Shown here piece by piece: positions 14,722-57,841 of a DNA stretch of 64,000 bases. The first letter of the stretch is position 1; every line of letters starts with the position of its first letter. Origin of the DNA: Candidatus Woesearchaeota archaeon (GTDB lineage: Archaea; Nanobdellota; Nanobdellia; Woesearchaeales; SM23-78). Location of the stretch: NCBI GenBank assembly GCA_016930415.1, contig JAFGGS010000022.1:16930-80929 (forward strand), written 5' to 3'. Position numbers and translations under genes: made by a program. The notes beneath the pieces are model-generated. The model saw only the letters and a list, made by a program, of their open reading frames with translations. It ran no database searches and had not been told where the DNA came from.

Positions 14722-15453
14722 ATGAAACTTAAGAATAAGGTTGCACTAATTACAGGGGCTAGCAGAGGCATCGGGAGAGCGACTGCCTTGCTGTTTGCTA
14801 AAGAAGGTGCAAATATTATTGTTAATTATTTTAAAGCAGAAAACGAAGCCAATTCTGTTGTTCAAGATATTAAAAAGATGGGTGCTGACGCAATCACAAT
14901 TAAGTGTGATGTTTCCAAAGAGAATGAAGTCAAACAAATGGTAGATAAGGCAATTAAAAAATTTGGTAAAATAGATATTCTCGTTAATAATGCAGGTATA
15001 GTTTTTGACGTGCCATTTAAAGACAGGACTGTTGAACATTGGAAAAGAACTTTAGATGTTAATCTTATAGGTGCGTTTATTTGTGCTAAACATGTTACTT
15101 CGCACATGAAAAAAGGGCATATTGTTAATATTGCCTCAACTAATGGAATTAATGCTTGCAGTCCTGAATCTATGGATTATGATGCTTCAAAGGCAGGATT
15201 AATTAGCTTGACTAAAACCCTCGCACAGGCATTAGCACCAAATGTTATGGTAAATTGTGTAGCGCCTGGCTGGGTGGATACGGATATAAATAAAGATTTA
15301 CCAAAAGATTATGTGAAGTCAGAAACACAAAATATTTTATTGAAAAGATTTGGCAAACCTGAAGAAATTGCAAAGACAGTCTTGTTCTTAGTATCAGATG
15401 ATGCAAGTTTTATAACTGGAACAACAGTTGTGGTTGCTGGCGGATATCAATAA
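14722..15453 (+). CDS. fabG: SDR family oxidoreductase, FabG (3-oxoacyl-ACP reductase)-like; low-GC, probably horizontally acquired
   Basis: TGASRGIGRA cofactor motif, NNAG, catalytic Y-x3-K (YDASKAG); gene is about 36% GC versus about 52% for surroundings. Confidence 0.8.
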   Translation: MKLKNKVALITGASRGIGRATALLFAKEGANIIVNYFKAENEANSVVQDIKKMGADAITIKCDVSKENEVKQMVDKAIKKFGKIDILVNNAGIVFDVPFKDRTVEHWKRTLDVNLIGAFICAKHVTSHMKKGHIVNIASTNGINACSPESMDYDASKAGLISLTKTLAQALAPNVMVNCVAPGWVDTDINKDLPKDYVKSETQNILLKRFGKPEEIAKTVLFLVSDDASFITGTTVVVAGGYQ

Positions 15454-46786: not shown

Positions 46787-49411
46787 TTACTCCTTGTCCC
46801 TTAACACTGCCTGCGCCGCTGCTAATCTCGCTATAGGTATCCTGTAGGGCGAGCAGCTCACATAGTTGAGGCCTATCCTGTGGCAGAACTCGACGCTTGA
46901 TGGTTCTCCACCGTGCTCTCCGCATATGCCGCACTTGAGCTTTTCCTTGACATGCCTTCCTTTCTTGATGGCTATCTTCATGAGTTCTCCGACGCCGCTC
47001 TGGTCTAGCGCCTGGAATGGGTCTCTCTCGTAGATTCCCAGGTCGACGTAAGCCGGCAGGAACTTGCCGGAGTCGTCTCTAGACAAACCTAGTCCCATCT
47101 GCGTCAAGTCATTCGTCCCGAAGCTGAAGAACTCTGCTTCGCTCGCAATCTCGTCAGCTGTCAAAGCTGCCCGCGGCACCTCGATCATGGTCCCGACCGT
47201 GTACTTGATCTTCTTGCCGCTCTCCTTCATGACATCGTCCGCGACCTTGACGATGATATCTTTCTGGAGCCTTAGCTCTTTCACATGGCCGACTAGCGGA
47301 ACCATGACTTCCGGCTCTACCTCTATTCCTTTCTTCTCGCAAGCGACCGCGGCTTCGAAGATCGCCCTTGCCTGCATCTCTGTTATCTCAGGGAAGATTA
47401 TCCCTAAGCGGCATCCCCTGTGTCCTAGCATAGGGTTGAATTCGTGGAGCTCTTCGCACTTGGCATTCACCCTCTCGAGCGTGACCTTGAGCTCCTTTGC
47501 AAGCTCCTTCTTGTCCTCTTCCTCGTGGGGCAGGAACTCGTGGAGCGGCGGGTCTAGCAGCCTGATGGTGACTGGCAAGCCTTTCATCTCTGTGAAGAGT
47601 CCTGTGAAATCTTCTCGCTGCATCGGCAAGAGCTTTGCCAAGGCCTTCTTCCTGACCTCTAAGCTGTCTGAGAGTATCATCTCCCTGACCGCCTTGATCC
47701 TGTCTCCCTCGAAGAACATGTGCTCTGTCCTGCAAAGGCCGATTCCCTCTGCTCCGAATCCGCGCGCCACCTTGGCGTCTGTCGGAGTGTCTCCGTTAGT
47801 CCTGACCTTTAGTTTCCTGTGCTTGTCAGCCCACTCCATGAGAGTGCCGAAGTCACCGCTAAGGGAGGGATTCATGAGACCTACCTGTCCGTGGAAGACC
47901 TCACCTGTGCTTCCGTCAAGTGTTATGTAGTCATTCTCTTTCAATATGAGGCTTCCGACTGTGAGCTTCTTTGCATCCTCTTCGACCTTTATCTCGCTGC
48001 AGCCAGCGACGCAAGCCTTGCCCATGCCCCTCGCGACGACTGCTGCATGGCTCGTCATGCCGCCCCTCGCTGTCAATATCCCGACTGCAGAGTGCATTCC
48101 CTTGATATCCTCTGGGCTGGTCTCTGTCCTGACGAGCACGACCTTCTCTCCTTTCTCTGCCATCTCGACTGCGTGCTCTGCATGGAAGACTATCTTTCCG
48201 ACAGCCGCGCCTGGGCTTGCAGGCAGTCCCTTGGCGATAGCCTTCACCTTCTTCTTGGCTGCAGGATCGATCGTCTTGTGGAGGAGCTGATCCAGCTGCT
48301 CTGGAGCGACTCTCAAGATCGCTGTCTTCTCGTCTATCAGCTCTTCCTTGACCATCTCGACTGCTATCCTGACTGCTGCGTGGGCGGTCCTCTTGCCGTT
48401 CCTGGTCTGGAGCATGTAGAGCTTCTCCTCCTGGATCGTGAACTCCATGTCCTGCATGTCCTTGTAATGCTTCTCGAGCTTGTCCTTGATCGCGACCAGC
48501 TCTGCGTATTGCTTGTGCATGGTCTTCTTGAGCTCTGAGATCGGGAGGGGTGTCCTTATGCCTGCTACCACGTCTTCTCCTTGAGCGTTCATCAAGAACT
48601 CTCCGTAAAAGTGGTTCTCTCCTGTCGATGGATTCCTTGAGAAGCACACCCCTGTGCCTGAGGTCGGTCCCATGTTGCCGAACACCATAGTCTGGATGTT
48701 GACCGCAGTCCCTAGAAGCCCTGTTATGTTGTTGAGCTTCCTGTAAGTTATCGCCCTCTCGTTGTTCCAGGAGTTGAAGATGGCATTGATGCTAAGCCTC
48801 AGCTGCTCTCTTGGGTCTTGCGGGAAGTCCTTGCCTGTCGCCTTCTTCACGACCTGCTTGTACTCAGTCACGACCTTCTTCAGGTCGCTTGCGTCAAGCT
48901 CAGTATCATACTTGACTCCCTTATTCTCCTTTGCCTTGTCAAGCACTTCCTCGAAGAGCTTGTGCTCGACTCCCATGTCCACGTCCCCGAACATCTGGAT
49001 GAACCGCCTGTAAGAGTCCCAAGCGAACCTTTCATTGCCGCTCTTCCTGATGATGGCCTGGACTGTCTCGTCGTTTATACCTAAGTTTAGGACTGTGTCC
49101 ATCATGCCTGGCATAGAGGCTGCGGCTCCGCTCCTTACCGATACTAAGAGTGGTTTGATCTTGTCGCCGAACCTCGCGTCCATGGCCTTCTCGAGCATCT
49201 CTATGTTCTTCTCAAGCTCCTTGTCTAGCCCTTCTGGCCACTTCTTGGTCTTGTGGAACTCTGCGCAGGTCTCTGTCGTGATGGTGAATCCAGGCGGGAC
49301 AGGCACTCCAAGCCTGGTCATCTCTGCAAGGTTTGCTCCCTTGCCGCCTAGCAAGTCTTTCATGGACTTATCTCCTTCTGAGAAAAAATATACGTACTTC
49401 TTGTTTGTCAT
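46787..49411 (-). CDS. ppdK: pyruvate, phosphate dikinase
   Basis: 874 aa; [22 protein letters not shown]-terminus and [21 protein letters not shown] phosphohistidine region. Confidence 0.85.
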
Positions 49412-49548
49412 GGTATAACACCCTCCTATGAGCTGTTTTCTAGATCAAGGAAAAAACCTTTTGGTTCTAACCCTTATCCTTCCAAAAGAAAAATGGATTG
49501 TTTATAAATTTTATCTTGGGTTCACAAGAATTTTTGTTTTTCCTGCCT

Positions 49549-50208
49549 TCAGAATCCGCTCAGCGTCTTCTGCTTGCTTTCTGCTTTCTTCGCCGCCGTC
49601 TTCCAAGTCCCCCAGCTTTTCCTGAAGAAGTCGTACTTGTCGTACTTGTCTTTCACGAACTGGGCCGTGACTGGGTCTGCGGGGTAACCTGATCCGAAGT
49701 TGACGTTGTGCTTCTTCTTGAGTTCCTCGATCGCGTGGTCTCGTGTGACCTTTGCAAGGATGCTCGCAGCGCCGACTATGAGATACTTGTAGTCTGCTTT
49801 GTGCTCTACGACTAGCTTCGGCTTGTAGGAAAGCTTCTGCCTAAGATAGTCAGTATATGCCTTTGGATTCGCGCTTGGGCAGTCGACGAACACTTTCTCG
49901 ACGCCATTCTTCTGCTGGTTGTTGATTAGCTTGGCCCCTACGTCTGCCTCAAGCCAGTTGAGGTTCGTCGTCTCGCTCTCGACCGCAGAGTCTATGTCTG
50001 CGGGCCCAACCGCTATTATTTCGTACTTGCAGATCCTCTTGATCTGGCCTATCATGCGCTCCCTGTTAGCGGGGGTTATGAGCTTTGAGTCCTTTACCCC
50101 TATCTTCTCAAGCTCCGGCAGGTCTTTCTCGTCTATCACTGCTATAGCCATGACTATTGGGCCTATCACCGGCCCCCGGCCTGCCTCGTCTATGCCTGCT
50201 ATTATCAT
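49549..50208 (-). CDS. rnhB: ribonuclease HII
   Basis: MIIAGIDEAGRGPVIGPIVMA N-terminal catalytic motif. Confidence 0.85.
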   Translation of the reverse strand: MIIAGIDEAGRGPVIGPIVMAIAVIDEKDLPELEKIGVKDSKLITPANRERMIGQIKRICKYEIIAVGPADIDSAVESETTNLNWLEADVGAKLINNQQKNGVEKVFVDCPSANPKAYTDYLRQKLSYKPKLVVEHKADYKYLIVGAASILAKVTRDHAIEELKKKHNVNFGSGYPADPVTAQFVKDKYDKYDFFRKSWGTWKTAAKKAESKQKTLSGF

Positions 50209-50331
50209 GATACAAGAATAAGGCGCGTTGTTATTTAAATCTTGCTTCTGAATACGTTCTTTGGTTTATTTGTTACTTTCAAGTGGTCTTTGACAGAAAT
50301 TCTTATAAATTAAACACGATTCTCTGAGATT

Positions 50332-51090
50332 ATGGGGAATCCGTTTGAGGAGACTAAAAAAAGACTGCGTTTAGCAGAAGAGGAAGCTAATCGTTATAGA
50401 GATTTATCTCTCTGTGTTATCCTTGCTGGATCAGTCGCTTACTCTCCTAATCACGCAGTTACTGAATCCTCAGATTTAGATTTGATTGTTGTATCTGCTG
50501 ATGTAAAAGGTATGCTGTCACTTCTTATTGAGGACTCTCAAGAATTATCTGCTCTTAAAAACAGGTTCTTTGAGGGTTACTGTCTAAAACGTGAGAGCCA
50601 AGGGATCCCTGTGAGCATACATCTCCTTAGTGAAGATGCCTTTGATATTATTAGTAAATGTTTTGTATCTAATATGCGCGTCTACAGGCCAAAACCAAAA
50701 CCTGAGGCCTATTCCTTACATGGATTTGATGGCGCAGTGTATCCTTATTTCATAAAAAATGTGTCCTTGCCGGATTTAAGGGGTGTGCGCACTATAGTTC
50801 CCATATCCTTCATATATGATGATAGATATCATCTAGGAATCCATAGAGACAAGCTTCTTAGCAATCCGAAGATTTTATGCGAATCCGAACAACATGCCTC
50901 TGCTCGTATTGACAAATTATGGGCTGTTGTTGTGGAAAACTTATATGATGAAGCACATAGGCTATATGGTCATCTGGATTTGGGCAGGATGAACGTACTT
51001 AATGCGTTATCGAGGTCTCATAAGATGACGCCAGCTGTCATTGCAGAAATTACTGGCAAGACCTCGTTCTACTTATCTCGTCTCAGATAA
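50332..51090 (+). CDS. Pol-beta-superfamily nucleotidyltransferase of unknown specificity (low GC)
   Basis: GSVAYSPNHAVTESSDLDLIVV = GS..(x)..DxD minimal NTase motif; about 40% GC. Confidence 0.55.
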   Translation: MGNPFEETKKRLRLAEEEANRYRDLSLCVILAGSVAYSPNHAVTESSDLDLIVVSADVKGMLSLLIEDSQELSALKNRFFEGYCLKRESQGIPVSIHLLSEDAFDIISKCFVSNMRVYRPKPKPEAYSLHGFDGAVYPYFIKNVSLPDLRGVRTIVPISFIYDDRYHLGIHRDKLLSNPKILCESEQHASARIDKLWAVVVENLYDEAHRLYGHLDLGRMNVLNALSRSHKMTPAVIAEITGKTSFYLSRLR

Positions 51091-51967
51091 TCTCTCTTCT
51101 GGATGATGAGGGATCGTACATGTCAAACATTATCACGGCAAGATTCTTGCTTTCCGGATTGTTGCCAGGGGAAAAACAGGTCGTGAATCCTATCTTCTCT
51201 TTGTATTTTCCGGATTTTTTCACAGTTTCGTGTATGTGGCCATGCAGGCTTATCTCTGGTATTTTTGTCTCTATTATTTGTCTTACGCCTTTGCTTCCGA
51301 CATGTTCCCTTGTGCTATTCAGGTCTAGGTTGCTGTTGTAGGGTGGTGCGTGTGTCATTAGGATTGTTTTCTTCATTCTCTTTTTTCTGAAGAGTCTCTC
51401 TAAGTCTTTCTCGATTGTATCTTTCCTGTTTTTGGTCTGTATTACCTTCTTTACTAGTTCTCCGTCTTTGCTACAGAATCCTTCTGTTATGAAGTAAGGC
51501 CTATATTCTTTCTCATCAATATATCGGCTGTCTAGTTTCTCCCAATCCTTGTAGATGAAGGGTGATAGCGGCACGAATGAGTATCCTATCAAGTCATAAT
51601 CCTTCGTGAGGGACGCGATCTTGTTGTGTACTTCTTTAAATCCGGCACTCTCGTTTCTTATGAGGAAACTCCTGTTATCCTTGAAATCATCGTTCCCCAT
51701 GATAAGGAATATCTTGACATCCTTCCTTGTTTTTTTGAAGGACTCCTTGGTTCTTTTTATTAAGGGTATTAGCTCGTTCTTGAGGAATGCTTTCTGAAGC
51801 TTTGGTGTCCTTCTTTCTTTATCTTTTGGAGTTATATCGCCTCCTATGATCACCGCGTCTGCTTGTTCTGAGAGTGCCTTCGCGAAAAGCTTCACATATT
51901 GACTTATGTTGCCATGAAGATCTGCAGTGTATATTATTTTGTAGCTCCTTTTTCCCTTGGATTCCAT
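51083..51967 (-). CDS. calcineurin-like metallophosphoesterase (low GC)
   Basis: DLHGN, GGDI, GNDD, HAPP, GHIHE motif series; converges on and overlaps the NTase gene by 8 nt. Confidence 0.7.
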   Translation of the reverse strand: MESKGKRSYKIIYTADLHGNISQYVKLFAKALSEQADAVIIGGDITPKDKERRTPKLQKAFLKNELIPLIKRTKESFKKTRKDVKIFLIMGNDDFKDNRSFLIRNESAGFKEVHNKIASLTKDYDLIGYSFVPLSPFIYKDWEKLDSRYIDEKEYRPYFITEGFCSKDGELVKKVIQTKNRKDTIEKDLERLFRKKRMKKTILMTHAPPYNSNLDLNSTREHVGSKGVRQIIETKIPEISLHGHIHETVKKSGKYKEKIGFTTCFSPGNNPESKNLAVIMFDMYDPSSSRREII

Positions 51968-52005
51968 TAAGAACTAGAAAGAATTTGGGATTATTTAAAT
52001 TTTAT

Positions 52006-52452
52006 CTACATCTTGGCCTTGACGTAGAGCGTCGATGCGATCTTCGTCAGGAGCATCGCTCCGAGCACGACCGCTATCGAGAGGTCGAAAGGCAGGCTTG
52101 CAAGTCCGCCTGTCGCCATGAGCGCCTTGTTCTGATATGATTGCCATAGCGCCATACCTATAAGGGCTGCTATCGCCGCGAACGAGCAGTTCCTCTCTAT
52201 TATCAGTTGGTGCATGTTCTCCCGCTCGTCACTCACTCTCGGCAGCTGCATCATGATGTGGAGTATGTCTGCTATGAATACCGTGAAGACTACTCCCAGC
52301 ACTATGGGCTTCACTGCCTCGTTGAAGCCCGCCGCTGTCACGAATCCAAGGATCGCCGCGGCCGCTGCCACGTAGACCCATCCTTGCCATGTCCTTGGGG
52401 CGACTCCCCATCCGAATATCCTGTATTTGAACCATTCCGGTTTTCCAATCAT
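52006..52452 (-). CDS. hypothetical membrane protein
   Basis: 148 aa, 3-4 predicted TM segments. Confidence 0.4.
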   Translation of the reverse strand: MIGKPEWFKYRIFGWGVAPRTWQGWVYVAAAAAILGFVTAAGFNEAVKPIVLGVVFTVFIADILHIMMQLPRVSDERENMHQLIIERNCSFAAIAALIGMALWQSYQNKALMATGGLASLPFDLSIAVVLGAMLLTKIASTLYVKAKM

Positions 52453-52462
52453 GTTCTCACCT

Positions 52463-52508
52463 TTTGTACTTGTTGTAAGTTTTTCTTTGTACTTGTTGTA
52501 AGTTTTTC
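52463..52508. repeat. perfect 2 x 23-nt tandem direct repeat (tttgtacttgttgtaagtttttc)
   Basis: Seen directly in intergenic region between membrane-protein genes. Confidence 0.9.
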
Positions 52509-52519
52509 TTCTTGCTGTT

Positions 52520-52942
52520 CTAATTGTATCTTAGTAGTATCCTGTACGATGCAGTGTACACTATCATCATGTAGCATATTAGGTAGCTCATGAACATGTG
52601 ATGAGGCACTGCTATCGCGCTTATCCCGTCTATTATGATCACTATGAATGCTAGCAGCACGACTGCGAGGAACGTCACCCTGTTCGCCTTGGCCGCGACG
52701 TGGAGCATCCTCTCGTCCACGACCCTCTTCTTGCTGGTTATTGATTGGAGCGTGACTATCGCCAGGCTCACCAGGCCTACGTAGACCAGCCAGTTGCCGA
52801 CCGTCCCGAATCCAAGGAAGTCTCCTGCGCCTGCTCCGCTGGTGTTGAAGATTGCTCCCAGCGCTATCATGGCTATCCCGAAGCCGTATTTCCATGCTTT
52901 TCTCTTCTTCACGTTCCTTTCTTGGTTCTCTTCTTTCATCAT
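52520..52942 (-). CDS. hypothetical membrane protein (often paired with XRE HTH)
   Basis: 140 aa, multi-TM; immediately downstream of small XRE regulator. Confidence 0.4.
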   Translation of the reverse strand: MMKEENQERNVKKRKAWKYGFGIAMIALGAIFNTSGAGAGDFLGFGTVGNWLVYVGLVSLAIVTLQSITSKKRVVDERMLHVAAKANRVTFLAVVLLAFIVIIIDGISAIAVPHHMFMSYLICYMMIVYTASYRILLRYN

Positions 52943-52964
52943 GATCGCCTCTTCATCCTTTGCC

Positions 52965-53165
52965 TTACAGTCCGAACAGGTCTTCTACCTTGCACTTGAA
53001 GAGCTTGGCGAGCTTCAGGGCCAGCTCGAGCGAAGGCACGTATTTGCCTCCTTCGATGGAGATGATGGTCTGGCGGGTCACGCCGACAGCCTCTGAGAGC
53101 TTCTCCTGACTCATACTCTTCTTCTCGCGGTATTCTTTTAGCCTATTCTTGGTTATTGCCATGTC
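52965..53165 (-). CDS. XRE-family (Cro/C1-type) HTH transcriptional regulator
   Basis: KSMSQEKLSEAVGVTRQTIISIEGGKYVPSLELALKLAKLF is a classical HTH_XRE; start ambiguous (ORF extends to 53195). Confidence 0.6.
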   Translation of the reverse strand, partial: DMAITKNRLKEYREKKSMSQEKLSEAVGVTRQTIISIEGGKYVPSLELALKLAKLFKCKVEDLFGL

Positions 53166-53274
53166 CAACACCTGTCGCGCGATGGTTGCCGCCACGCGCT
53201 TATGTAAAGCTAACTATACGTAAAGTATGCTTTACTATTTATATTTTTTGGTTTCAGAATAAGAAAAAGGCACT

Positions 53275-54396
53275 CTAGATGCCTTTGATGCTCTCCTTGA
53301 GCCCTTCGCCGTCCGGCAGGTGCTTTGGCTCTTTCAATCCTTCGAGTTTCTCGAGGACGCCGACGTGCTCGAGCCCTACTTTGCCGTAGAAGAGCTTCCT
53401 CAAGGCGTCCTTCCCGTTCTTTTCAAGGTATTCTTTCACGTCGTAGTATCCTTTCAGGTAGACTAGGTCTTTTGTATATCCGCCGGGCAGGAAGGTATCT
53501 CTTAGTCCTCGCTTCGCGCGCAGCGTCAGGTTCCAGGCCTCTTCATCGCTGAAGAACTTTTTCAGTATCTCAAAGACCTCCCGAAAGCTCTTATATGAGT
53601 TTCCGACGGCAACAACCCTGCCTGCAAAAACTTTCATCCTCTCTTCGCACAAGCATCCATGCATCTCCTCGACGTTCGCTGCCACTCCTTCCTCTGTCAA
53701 GAGGTAGCCTGGGAATCCTGTGATGAACAGCTTGTAATCCTGCGCTTCGCCGTTCGCCGCCCGGAAGACGTGGGTTCCGATCTCATGGACCACTAGGCCT
53801 TTCAGGACGCCAGGAGAGACTGCAGCCCTCTTCCTCACATAGACCTTCTTCGTGGCGGAGTACACTGCTGCAAGGGCTGTTATGTCAGACTCCTCCACCT
53901 TCCAATATGGAAGGCCGCTCTTTGCAAGGGCTTCTTGCATGGCCTTCATTATATCAGGCGATCCGAGTGTCTTGACGTCGCATGTTTTCTCTCCCTTGAC
54001 ACTATTCTCGTGCAGAATCTTGAGTGCCTTCTCCATCAGCCCCTTATCAGGCTTCCCATAAAGCCTCTCTGAGAAGAACGTGAACTCGTCCTTGCCTATG
54101 CTGTCAAGCAATAACGCAGTCGCGGACAATTGCTCCCTCTTCTCGACGAGCAGGGCAGAGTATATGTCTCCCTCCGGCAGCTTTATCTGCTTCAAGGACT
54201 CGAGCTTATCATTGACAAGCACCCACGCGTTCGCAGGCTCGTAAGAAAAAACAGGGTTCTTTGCTTCTCCTGAGAAAAAACGCTTCTTCTCCTCTGAAAC
54301 GTTCAGGGGCGAGAGCTTCGTGAAGAGTTCTGACAGTGAAGACTCGACCTCAAGAAGAACCTTATCATACCTCTTTGCTTCCTCAGATAAGCTCAT
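53275..54396 (-). CDS. putative zinc metallopeptidase (HExxH, DUF1704-like)
   Basis: VVHEIGTHVFRAANGE HExxH motif in 373-aa soluble protein. Confidence 0.4.
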   Translation of the reverse strand: MSLSEEAKRYDKVLLEVESSLSELFTKLSPLNVSEEKKRFFSGEAKNPVFSYEPANAWVLVNDKLESLKQIKLPEGDIYSALLVEKREQLSATALLLDSIGKDEFTFFSERLYGKPDKGLMEKALKILHENSVKGEKTCDVKTLGSPDIMKAMQEALAKSGLPYWKVEESDITALAAVYSATKKVYVRKRAAVSPGVLKGLVVHEIGTHVFRAANGEAQDYKLFITGFPGYLLTEEGVAANVEEMHGCLCEERMKVFAGRVVAVGNSYKSFREVFEILKKFFSDEEAWNLTLRAKRGLRDTFLPGGYTKDLVYLKGYYDVKEYLEKNGKDALRKLFYGKVGLEHVGVLEKLEGLKEPKHLPDGEGLKESIKGI

Positions 54397-57230: not shown

Positions 57231-57841
57231 TTATTGAATGAATTGCATTGCTTTCATTTCGTGCTTTTTATTGCTGAGTCCAACCTCTTTAATCCACTTT
57301 CTAAGTTCTTTCTTTCTGTTCATTTGAACCCTGACTTTTCCTTTTCCGATTTGATAGATGCCGAAATTGAATCCCATCTCTTCAAGAATCCTTATGAACT
57401 GTTTTTGCATTGGTGAAGGACCTATTTTCATCTTCAGTCTTGGATACTTTGTGCCATTGTTATTGGTGATAACTAAACAATCATCTGTGTCAAAATATCC
57501 TCTTAAAACCTGCGCTTGATATTTGTTTTCAAAAATCCAGTCTGGGACTTTCGCACGATTCCATTTCGGCGATGGTTTTAGCCCGACTTCATGAGTTATC
57601 TCTCTGATTTTCTCTCTGTTGAAGATATATAGATTGGCAGTATTCTCTTTTCTCCTAGATTCTTTCTTTACTTTTACGCAGAACATTCTTTTCAACGCTT
57701 CTTCTGTTTGGAGAAGTATTATTTGTCATCTTTTGAGTTAAAAGATATCTTGATCCTGGGATTATTTGGATAACTAATGTATCCATCTCCCAACATGATG
57801 CCTATAAATTCTGCGAGTTCCGGAGTTAATTTTGTTTTCAT
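57231..57841 (-). pseudogene. LAGLIDADG homing endonuclease, frameshifted (two motifs in different frames)
   Basis: Frame 1 from ATG 57841: MKTKLTPELAEFIGIMLGDGYISYPNN...KDDK-stop (motif 1); a different frame continues QIILLQTEEALKRMFC...VLRGYFDTDDCLV (motif 2) to 57231; AT-rich. Confidence 0.6.

Follow-up and report, generated by a model that had tools for sequence, protein, structure and literature searches.

Results

A convergent gene pair in a low-GC islet

The window analysed here is a 64,000-nt stretch of a Candidatus Woesearchaeota archaeon genome (assembly GCA_016930415.1, contig JAFGGS010000022.1, positions 16,930 to 80,929 of the forward strand), and we examined a pair of convergent open reading frames (ORFs) in it, designated A and B. 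ORF A is predicted to encode a nucleotidyltransferase (NTase) and ORF B a metallophosphoesterase (MPE) (Table 1). The genes meet tail to tail over TCAGATAA, which contains the TAA stop codon of A and the reverse complement of the TGA stop codon of B. The GC content of A is 0.402, with 0.34 at third codon positions (GC3), and that of B is 0.406, with a GC3 of 0.49. The window as a whole has a GC content of 0.501 and its genes a mean GC3 of 0.63 (standard deviation 0.11), and A and B are clear compositional outliers in it. A preliminary description of the locus had reported two convergent genes of about 40% GC that overlap by 8 nt at their 3' ends and lie between rnhB and a membrane/XRE module, and each of these points is borne out. 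ORF A is 100% identical to JW826_06505, and B likewise 100% identical to a second entry, of one 95-kb contig in a Ca. Woesearchaeota metagenome-assembled genome.

Each gene is preceded by a TATA-box-like sequence. We infer that TTATAAAT is an archaeal promoter that produces a leaderless or short-leader mRNA of A, and that AAATTTAAATAA is the promoter of B. A similarly placed TTTAAATA or TTTATAAA box lies upstream of A in most related loci with enough upstream sequence. A 13-nt direct repeat (TTATTTAAATCTT / TTATTTAAATTTT) found at both islet edges was considered as a target-site duplication and rejected, because the two copies are the correctly spaced TATA boxes of rnhB and B. An Rfam scan of positions 49000-53500 returned no match, and a scan for bacterial-type promoters and terminators, which is not applicable to archaea, did no better than with shuffled sequence.

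Table 1. Coordinates of the A/B pair, its promoters and neighbours, and of features in related loci.
Feature	Sequence	Position	Strand	Remarks
ORF A	window	50332..51090	+	252 aa, NTase
ORF B	window	51083..51967	-	294 aa, MPE
Tail-to-tail A/B overlap	window	51083..51090		8 nt, TCAGATAA; both stop codons inside
Low-GC islet	window	~50209..52005		~40% GC; A, B and their promoters only; edges: rnhB start and stop of the 52006-52452 gene
TATA-box-like TTATAAAT	window	50303..50310	+	22-29 nt upstream of A's ATG
TATA-box-like AAATTTAAATAA	window	51991..52002	-	24-35 nt upstream of B's ATG
GTAGTAA / GGTTAC-like motif	window	50270-50290		~8-15 nt upstream of A's TATA box
RNase HII (rnhB)	window	49549-50208		flank of islet; PF01351 at 2e-44
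Membrane protein, DUF2178 membrane protein, XRE HTH protein	window	52006-53195		other flank of islet
Palindrome at MPE start codon	L001	7757-7772
Palindrome at MPE start codon	L003	7769-7784
Palindrome at MPE start codon	L008	5865-5880
Palindrome at MPE start codon	L011	2925-2940
Palindrome at MPE start codon	L016	2564-2579
Palindrome at MPE start codon	L023	1660-1675
Direct repeat around cassette	L016	688-753 and 2608-2673		41 nt perfect, 66 nt at 86%
MPE P0040	L040	4001-4870	+	closest homologue of B, 54% identity
wHTH and DUF6036-NTase operon	L040	2659-3300 and 3297-3758	-	AbiE-like
MPE P0138	L047	3501-4370	+	GNDD type, 40% identical to B
Fic gene	L047	2525-3382	+	118 nt upstream of P0138
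P0223 neighbourhood with DEAD-box helicase and HIT-family hydrolase genes	L037	1065-3061 and 3985-5078
DUF2178 membrane gene adjoining XRE-family HTH gene	window	52520-53195	-	normal GC, outside islet
MATCAP-family gene	window	53275-54396	-	373 aa, PF08014 at 1.6e-48
FabG-like short-chain dehydrogenase gene	window	14722-15453	+	GC 0.35, GC3 0.25; PF13561 at 3e-67
Low-GC ORF	window	57231-57695	-	154 aa, GC 0.36; LAGLIDADG_3 at 4.5e-4, below cut-off

ORF A belongs to a nucleotidyltransferase family without a curated model

The window's A has no match among Pfam, NCBIfam or PADLOC models or PDB sequences. By word-indexed search, 38 homologues with 36-63% identity were obtained. All are from DPANN archaea except two records, labelled 'Euryarchaeota SM23-78' and 'Promethearchaeota'. 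When a 114-sequence superfamily alignment was used for the same type of search, the close A family was recovered again and nothing further. By exhaustive profile search (E<=1e-3), the superfamily comprises 288 clusters at 50% identity, most of them with proteins of 240-280 aa. No relative of A turned up in viral contigs, phage records or plasmids.

An alignment of 35 sequences shows that G33, S34, S47, D48, D50, R78, F80, S95 and H97 are invariant, as are R116, R119, Y127, H171, D173, K174, E207 and R210. Position 81 is acidic in all 35 proteins (E in 26, including the window's A, and D in 9). E81 stands at the start of a predicted strand (82-89) and the D48/D50 motif lies in another (49-55), and by its position residue 81 would be the third metal ligand. 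GS, DxD and this third carboxylate would make up a complete Pol-beta-type catalytic set, on which ground A is probably catalytically active. In the larger superfamily set, the G of the GS motif is present in 118/119 sequences and the S in 114/119, and the SDxD core is nearly invariant. PF01909 is matched by 63 of 114 relatives at E<=0.1 (best 2.6e-7), and the superfamily profile matches the solved minimal NTases 2rff (5e-5) and 9xbd (6e-4).

The AlphaFold (AF2) model of A has a pLDDT of 94, and Foldseek comparison with the PDB retrieved nucleotidyltransferases only, with template-modelling (TM) scores of 0.28-0.48 for ANT(4')/KNTase, Tam41 and CdnE. The best TM score, 0.48, was obtained with bacterial Tam41 (E 4e-4, probability 1.0); a viral structure library yielded generic NTases only (TM <=0.34). 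With its hG[GS] and [DE]h[DE]h motifs, third carboxylate and fold match, A is assigned by sequence and model to the Pol-beta superfamily, as a predicted NTase whose family has neither a curated model nor a close solved structure. The NTase core is followed by a beta-rich middle region (~113-168) and a C-terminal helical region that carries H171, D173, K174, E207 and R210; the middle region and the C-terminal GIHRDK, E207 and R210 elements are unique to the A family. The preliminary description had recognised a GS...DxD core, which corresponds to G33-S34 and D48-x-D50, and an uncharacterised C-terminal part. This account stands, and none of the curated families, housekeeping ones included, matched the protein.

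ORF B is a predicted complete metallophosphoesterase

ORF B scores 56.9 bits with PF00149 (5e-15; cut-off 21.5) and matches PF14582 at 1.4e-9, in a large family with about 1400 matches. Its motifs D16xH18, G43-D44, G91-N92-D93-D94 (GNDD), H206 and G243-H244-x-H246 are invariant in 39 homologues. GNDD replaces the usual GNH[DE], a change of His to Asp, and B also carries a conserved PxTPFxxKDWEKxD cap insert. The closest structures to its AF2 model (pLDDT 95.7) in Foldseek are aq_1956 (2yvt, 2e-14) and TT1561 (1uf3, 5e-11), both uncharacterised structural-genomics proteins, and these are followed by MPPED2 (4e-9), Lmo2642, Mre11/SbcD and Rv0805. A profile of B also finds 2yvt among PDB sequences at 2e-6. 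Together, sequence and model identify B as a predicted complete binuclear MPE of the aq_1956/TT1561 (Metallophos_3-like) branch with all metal-binding motifs present, in agreement with the preliminary description. The fold is shared with aq_1956/TT1561 (Metallophos_3, PF14582) and MPPED2/PDC-S10 (TM 0.60-0.79, either chain), as are the metal-binding motifs, whereas GNDD and the cap insert distinguish B from them. The match of B to the PADLOC model PDC-S10 spans profile positions 135-188 of 223 only (~55 residues, 3e-12), and B is not a PDC-S10 member.

An MPE gene adjoins A in every informative lineage of its family

Loci were collected by genome, metagenome and exact-protein look-ups, and the A and MPE genes were placed by tblastn, hidden Markov model search and ORF tracing. 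An MPE gene adjoins A in all 21 informative A-family lineages, which include DPANN archaea and bacteria-like marine contigs. The preliminary description had proposed examining the co-occurrence of the pair across genomes, and this is the opposite of a pair that never recurs. The two genes are convergent in 15 of the 21 lineages. Their overlap is exactly 8 nt in ten of these fifteen, with the geometry YYA-NN-TRA, and 4, 4, 11, 12 or -2 nt in the others. Three lineages (L014, L031 and L034) have divergent genes with a common intergenic region of ~120-133 nt, and three are co-directional, with A before MPE in L022 and MPE before A in L025 and L046. In L046 the genes overlap by 4 nt and therefore form an operon.

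The A relatives of L031, L034 and L046 are only 27-33% identical to the window's A, and the GNDD MPE subfamily is kept in all three (E<=1e-91). L034 has OmpW and LysR neighbours and L031 a GGAGG ribosome-binding site, which indicates that the pair also occurs on bacterial-looking contigs. L022 and L025 have another type of partner, an MPPED2-like MPE (5e-44 to 3rl4), and that of L025 is a full-length match to PDC-S10 (positions 10-218 of 223, 9e-87). This exchange of MPE subfamilies suggests that the required activity is generic MPE phosphodiesterase chemistry. The pairwise identities of A and B are correlated across 17 lineages (r=0.79, Mantel p<=2e-4). The MPE is the only conserved neighbour of A, and the other neighbours vary at every locus. 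No HEPN, AbiEi or MenA gene adjoins A in the window or related loci, and the loci examined contain no accompanying effector or receptor gene.

Many partner MPEs carry an RHH domain and a palindrome at their start codon

Roughly one in two A-linked MPEs is 331-342 aa long and starts with MQTIQIRLTKELVKKAQDLVDKGLYSNKSEVIRDALRRL. This N-terminal segment of 45 aa matches ribbon-helix-helix (RHH) models, all with scores below the curated cut-offs: RHH_1 (1e-3 to 4e-3), RHH_8 (1e-4), NikR (7.5e-5) and the ParD-type TIGR02606 (4e-8, 33 bits against a cut-off of 46). Six lineages with the RHH domain have a perfect palindrome, CATTAC-N4-GTAATG (mostly CATTACTATAGTAATG), whose last three bases are the MPE start codon. 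It lies ~10 nt downstream of the MPE TATA box, is present exactly once per locus, and is found at the MPE promoter only. A seventh RHH lineage, L009, has a variant with one mismatch (CAGTAC...). Loci with an RHH-less MPE do not have the palindrome; it is also absent upstream of the window's B, and there is no good match anywhere in the window. From its placement over the transcription start, the palindrome is probably an autoregulatory operator to which the RHH domain would bind.

A recurring GTAGTAA / GGTTAC-like motif ('TAGTAA/GTTAC') upstream of the TATA box of A resembles a half-site of this palindrome. It is present in the window and also in L001, L003, L009, L010, L018, L021 and L026. 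The motif is not established as an RHH binding site, because it also occurs in a locus without the RHH domain.

The pair is apparently mobile and sporadically distributed

The neighbourhood differs in every genome that carries the pair, and the adjoining genes include AsnC, RIO1/KH/PHP/TopoVI, ammonium transporter/CorA, LysR/OmpW, SpoU/M24 and, in the window, rnhB/XRE. Donor-like genomes with the pair have 22-42% GC (12 of 14 loci have 38% or less), and in most other hosts (22-38% GC) its GC content is lower than that of the flanks by only 0-6 points. A pair of 40% GC in a 50%-GC genome fits a recent transfer from a low-GC donor. In L016, a direct repeat brackets a 1.9-kb cassette. Both repeat copies encode VSLIGAILAMELSRHTQI and a stop codon, the 18-residue C-terminus of an upstream permease-like ORF, and their last five codons differ synonymously. 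The repeat is an insertion footprint and indicates that the pair moves as a unit.

The search patterns matched in only nine of 185,579 species genomes, which is a lower bound because the A gene of L042 escapes those patterns. Among 15 loci, the only tRNA gene near the pair is one ~2.6 kb away in L001, and tRNA-linked integration is not supported by these flanks.

MPEs without A and outer relatives of A

The best homologue of B, P0040, comes from a locus without A. P0040 is divergent to the wHTH and DUF6036-NTase operon of that locus, which also has a HerA-like gene nearby. Another GNDD MPE, P0138, is encoded on a Pacearchaeota contig (L047) that has no A-family gene, and lies downstream of a same-strand Fic gene with matches to PF02661 (2.5e-22), PADLOC SoFic (8e-31) and PDC-S04 (5e-33). 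It is suggestive that three classes of enzymes that transfer nucleoside monophosphates (NMPs) adjoin one MPE subfamily, and MPEs of this subfamily may serve Fic AMPylases and DUF6036 NTases in the way proposed for A.

The outer branches of the A superfamily (E>1e-14 to the profile) have no MPE. One outer relative, P0223 (L037, also L038 and L039), follows a DEAD-box helicase gene at a distance of 8 nt, and two genes for HIT-family hydrolases, one with a DcpS_C domain, are nearby. The missing MPE suggests that this branch uses a different nucleotide-adduct hydrolase. Another outer relative, P0311, sits behind a rhodanese gene.

Other features of the window

The DUF2178 membrane gene beside the islet adjoins the XRE-family HTH gene. 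Another gene of the window encodes a member of the MATCAP family (microtubule-associated tyrosine carboxypeptidase), a surprising family assignment for an archaeal protein, and adjoins HtpX and Dus genes. The window contains two further low-GC genes (Table 1). The FabG-like gene, the second strong outlier, is probably another recently acquired gene, and the ORF with the weak LAGLIDADG_3 match may be a homing endonuclease remnant.

Discussion

Comparison with known systems

The pair resembles DarT/DarG. Both are two-gene mobile modules in which a transferase and a hydrolase would act on the same type of bond, the hydrolase occurs alone more often than the transferase, and the hydrolase of B's relatives has an antitoxin-like DNA-binding domain. 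The two are unrelated in fold and chemistry, with an ADP-ribosyltransferase and a macrodomain in DarT/DarG and a predicted Pol-beta NTase and MPE here, and DarT/DarG is an operon whereas the genes described here are mostly convergent. Make-and-break logic with a nucleotidyl- or pyrophosphoryl-transferase and a hydrolase for the same bond is also found in GlnD, RelA/SpoT and bacterial CCA-adding enzymes. In each of these, however, one polypeptide includes the hydrolase, an HD domain, and the substrates are known, whereas the present arrangement consists of two genes and an MPE. MenT/MenA, AbiEii/AbiEi and MNT-HEPN share the Pol-beta NTase core (GS, DxD), the sporadic distribution and the two-gene organisation. 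A matches none of their models, however: PF08843 (AbiEii) is matched by one of 114 relatives at 0.047, and MenT1 reaches a Foldseek E of 0.1 only. Moreover, an MPE stands in the place of their wHTH, HEPN or kinase-type antitoxins, and the beta-rich insert of A has no counterpart in these systems. Type II toxin-antitoxin systems with RHH antitoxins differ in having a single autoregulated operon, whereas the genes here are convergent in most lineages and the RHH domain, present in relatives, is lacking from the window's B.

Among NTases of other function, ANT(4')/KNTase is the top Foldseek match of A (E ~1e-4, probability 1.0) and is alike in length (~253 aa) and in its order of N-terminal NTase core and C-terminal helical region. 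The superposition is nevertheless poor (TM 0.36-0.40, root-mean-square deviation 8-12 A, 9-10% identity), and the sequence alignment is limited to residues 8-63 of A (superfamily profile, E 4e-3). KNTase lacks the beta-rich middle domain, and A lacks a KNTase_C match and any resistance context. The cGAS/DncV-like NTases (CD-NTases) of CBASS share the NTase fold and give weak matches over the core only (CdnE at 3e-3, and 4e-6 for the distant A relative P0176). The TM scores of A to CdnE, CdnC and cGAS are only 0.16-0.28 (CdnE 0.28), 6e0m is matched at E 0.98, and the window's A has no PADLOC match, Cap effector gene or match to the CD-NTase C-terminal lobe. Membership of A among the CD-NTases, MNT-HEPN, AbiE, MenAT or KNTase was considered and rejected in each case. 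As the preliminary description had put it, no named system can be assigned: A fits no curated family, and no named system fits the pair. The pair is not described in the full-text literature searched. The NTase family, its MPE partner, the RHH/operator arrangement and the mainly archaeal host range are new here, whereas the logic of transferase plus hydrolase is already familiar from DarTG, GlnD and RelA/SpoT.

A proposed writer/eraser module

We consider it likely that both enzymes work on one and the same nucleotide-containing phosphodiester, which A would make and B would break. The acceptor to which A would transfer an NMP is most likely a macromolecule (RNA/tRNA, protein or DNA); the result would be a phosphodiester-linked nucleotide mark, and B would hydrolyse that bond, free 5'-NMP and so erase or limit the product of A. 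In relatives, the RHH domain of the MPE would probably repress its own promoter through the palindrome over the start codon; the copy in the window may have lost the domain or never had it, and B would then be expressed from a plain TATA promoter. The pair would thus form a self-contained, horizontally mobile module of two antagonistic enzymes, with a logic comparable to that of DarT/DarG but for nucleotidylation. Our preferred reading, held tentatively, is that this writer/eraser module follows toxin-antitoxin-like or defence-like logic. It is favoured because A never occurs without an MPE in the informative lineages, whereas the MPE occurs without A; because partner MPEs carry an antitoxin-type RHH domain and the palindrome; because two phosphodiesterase subfamilies are interchangeable; and because of the evidence for mobility and the links to PDC-S10 and Fic.

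Several observations weigh against this reading. The mostly convergent genes are not co-transcribed like classical toxin-antitoxin pairs, and most neighbourhoods consist of housekeeping genes rather than defence islands. Neither A nor B matches a PADLOC system beyond superfamily-level similarity, and small-molecule and lipid nucleotidyltransferases are among the nearest structural analogues of A. In the window's B, no RHH domain precedes the MPE domain, and the palindrome is missing as well. The searches of viral contigs, phage records and plasmids found no relative of A. The Fic and the DUF6036 adjacency were each seen only once, and an enrichment of Fic genes has been reported for DPANN genomes (PMC12988326). 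As for the PDC-S10 link, PDCs are untested defence candidates predicted by 'guilt-by-embedding' (10.1101/2024.01.29.577857).

Alternatives to the writer/eraser module

A different product of A would turn the pair into a second-messenger system. A would cyclise or oligomerise NTPs, as class I adenylate cyclase and CD-NTases do, B would degrade the signal, and the RHH-MPE would be a signal-responsive transcription factor. The nearest characterised relatives of the MPE are indeed cyclic-nucleotide phosphodiesterases (MPPED2, Lmo2642 and Rv0805), CdnE is among the Foldseek matches of A, and P0176 weakly matches PADLOC CBASS cyclase models over the catalytic core. Three A relatives also weakly match Adenyl_cycl_N, and separate promoters fit independently regulated opposing enzymes. 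Still, we regard signalling as unlikely, given the low TM scores to CD-NTases, the lack of a PADLOC cyclase match for the window's A and of a conserved receptor or effector gene adjoining the pair, and a B without RHH, which would leave the system without output in this genome. The preliminary description had likened the pair to nucleotide-signal-based defence or toxin-antitoxin logic. This reading gains only circumstantial support, from the RHH domain and palindrome of relatives' MPEs, the PDC-S10-type partner, the Fic/SoFic neighbour of a related MPE and the L016 footprint. A is not cGAS/DncV-like by PADLOC, Foldseek or profile, and no effector or receptor gene stands alongside. The PADLOC check that it proposed gave no match for A and the partial PDC-S10 match for B.

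It is improbable, in our estimate, that the pair serves small-molecule or lipid metabolism or resistance, with A nucleotidylating a metabolite, an antibiotic or a lipid hydroxyl or phosphate in the manner of ANT(4') or Tam41 and B processing the product. MPEs such as LpxH act on nucleotide-linked lipids, A has the same length as KNTase, and ANT(4')/KNTase and bacterial Tam41 are its best structural matches; these matches nonetheless stay below TM 0.5 at 9-10% identity, that to KNTase is limited in sequence to the N-terminal core, an autoregulated RHH fusion would be unusual for a resistance or biosynthetic enzyme, and no other pathway genes are linked. Healing of RNA (tRNA) 3' ends, in which B would remove 2',3'-cyclic or 3'-phosphate ends and A would re-add nucleotides (CCA repair or tailing), seems distinctly improbable. 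An NTase with a phosphoesterase is the logic of bacterial HD-domain CCA-adding enzymes and of Pnkp-type repair, B is basic (pI 9.6), and Lmo2642-type MPEs are among its structural matches. A sporadic, mobile pair fits housekeeping repair poorly, however; no ligase, RtcB or kinase is linked to it, and beyond the NTase core A has no detectable similarity to the head, neck and body domains of CCA-adding enzymes. The position of P0223 behind a DEAD-box helicase gene and near HIT hydrolase genes would also favour RNA repair, but that association comes from a branch without MPE. Finally, unrelated genes might adjoin by chance in compact genomes: overlapping genes are frequent in the small genomes of DPANN archaea, and a convergent pair has no common transcript. 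The neighbourhood data effectively exclude this. A and an MPE are neighbours in 21/21 lineages, whether archaeal or bacteria-like in context; four arrangements and two MPE subfamilies are represented, the identity of A falls as low as ~27%, and A and B co-diverge.

Implications

In the tiny genomes of DPANN archaea, few defence systems have been recognised and a large proportion of the genes lacks annotation. In its strongest form, to which we give a rather low probability, the writer/eraser proposal would make the pair the first known member of a new type of conflict module that DPANN archaea share with some marine bacteria: A would NMPylate a cellular or viral macromolecule and the MPE, often fused to an autoregulatory RHH domain, would erase the mark. 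As a counterpart of DarG, such an MPE would then be the first 'de-nucleotidylase' antitoxin of the metallophosphoesterase type. A writer/eraser function as such would establish a new principle of enzymatic antitoxins, the phosphodiester erasure of NMP marks by an MPE, and would provide the first biochemical lead for the aq_1956/TT1561 orphans and PDC-S10. Should A and B instead form a signalling pair, A would represent a new nucleotide-messenger synthase family. Either way, a protein family of 288 clusters without a curated model gains a testable functional partner, and the substrates are directly testable with two small soluble proteins.

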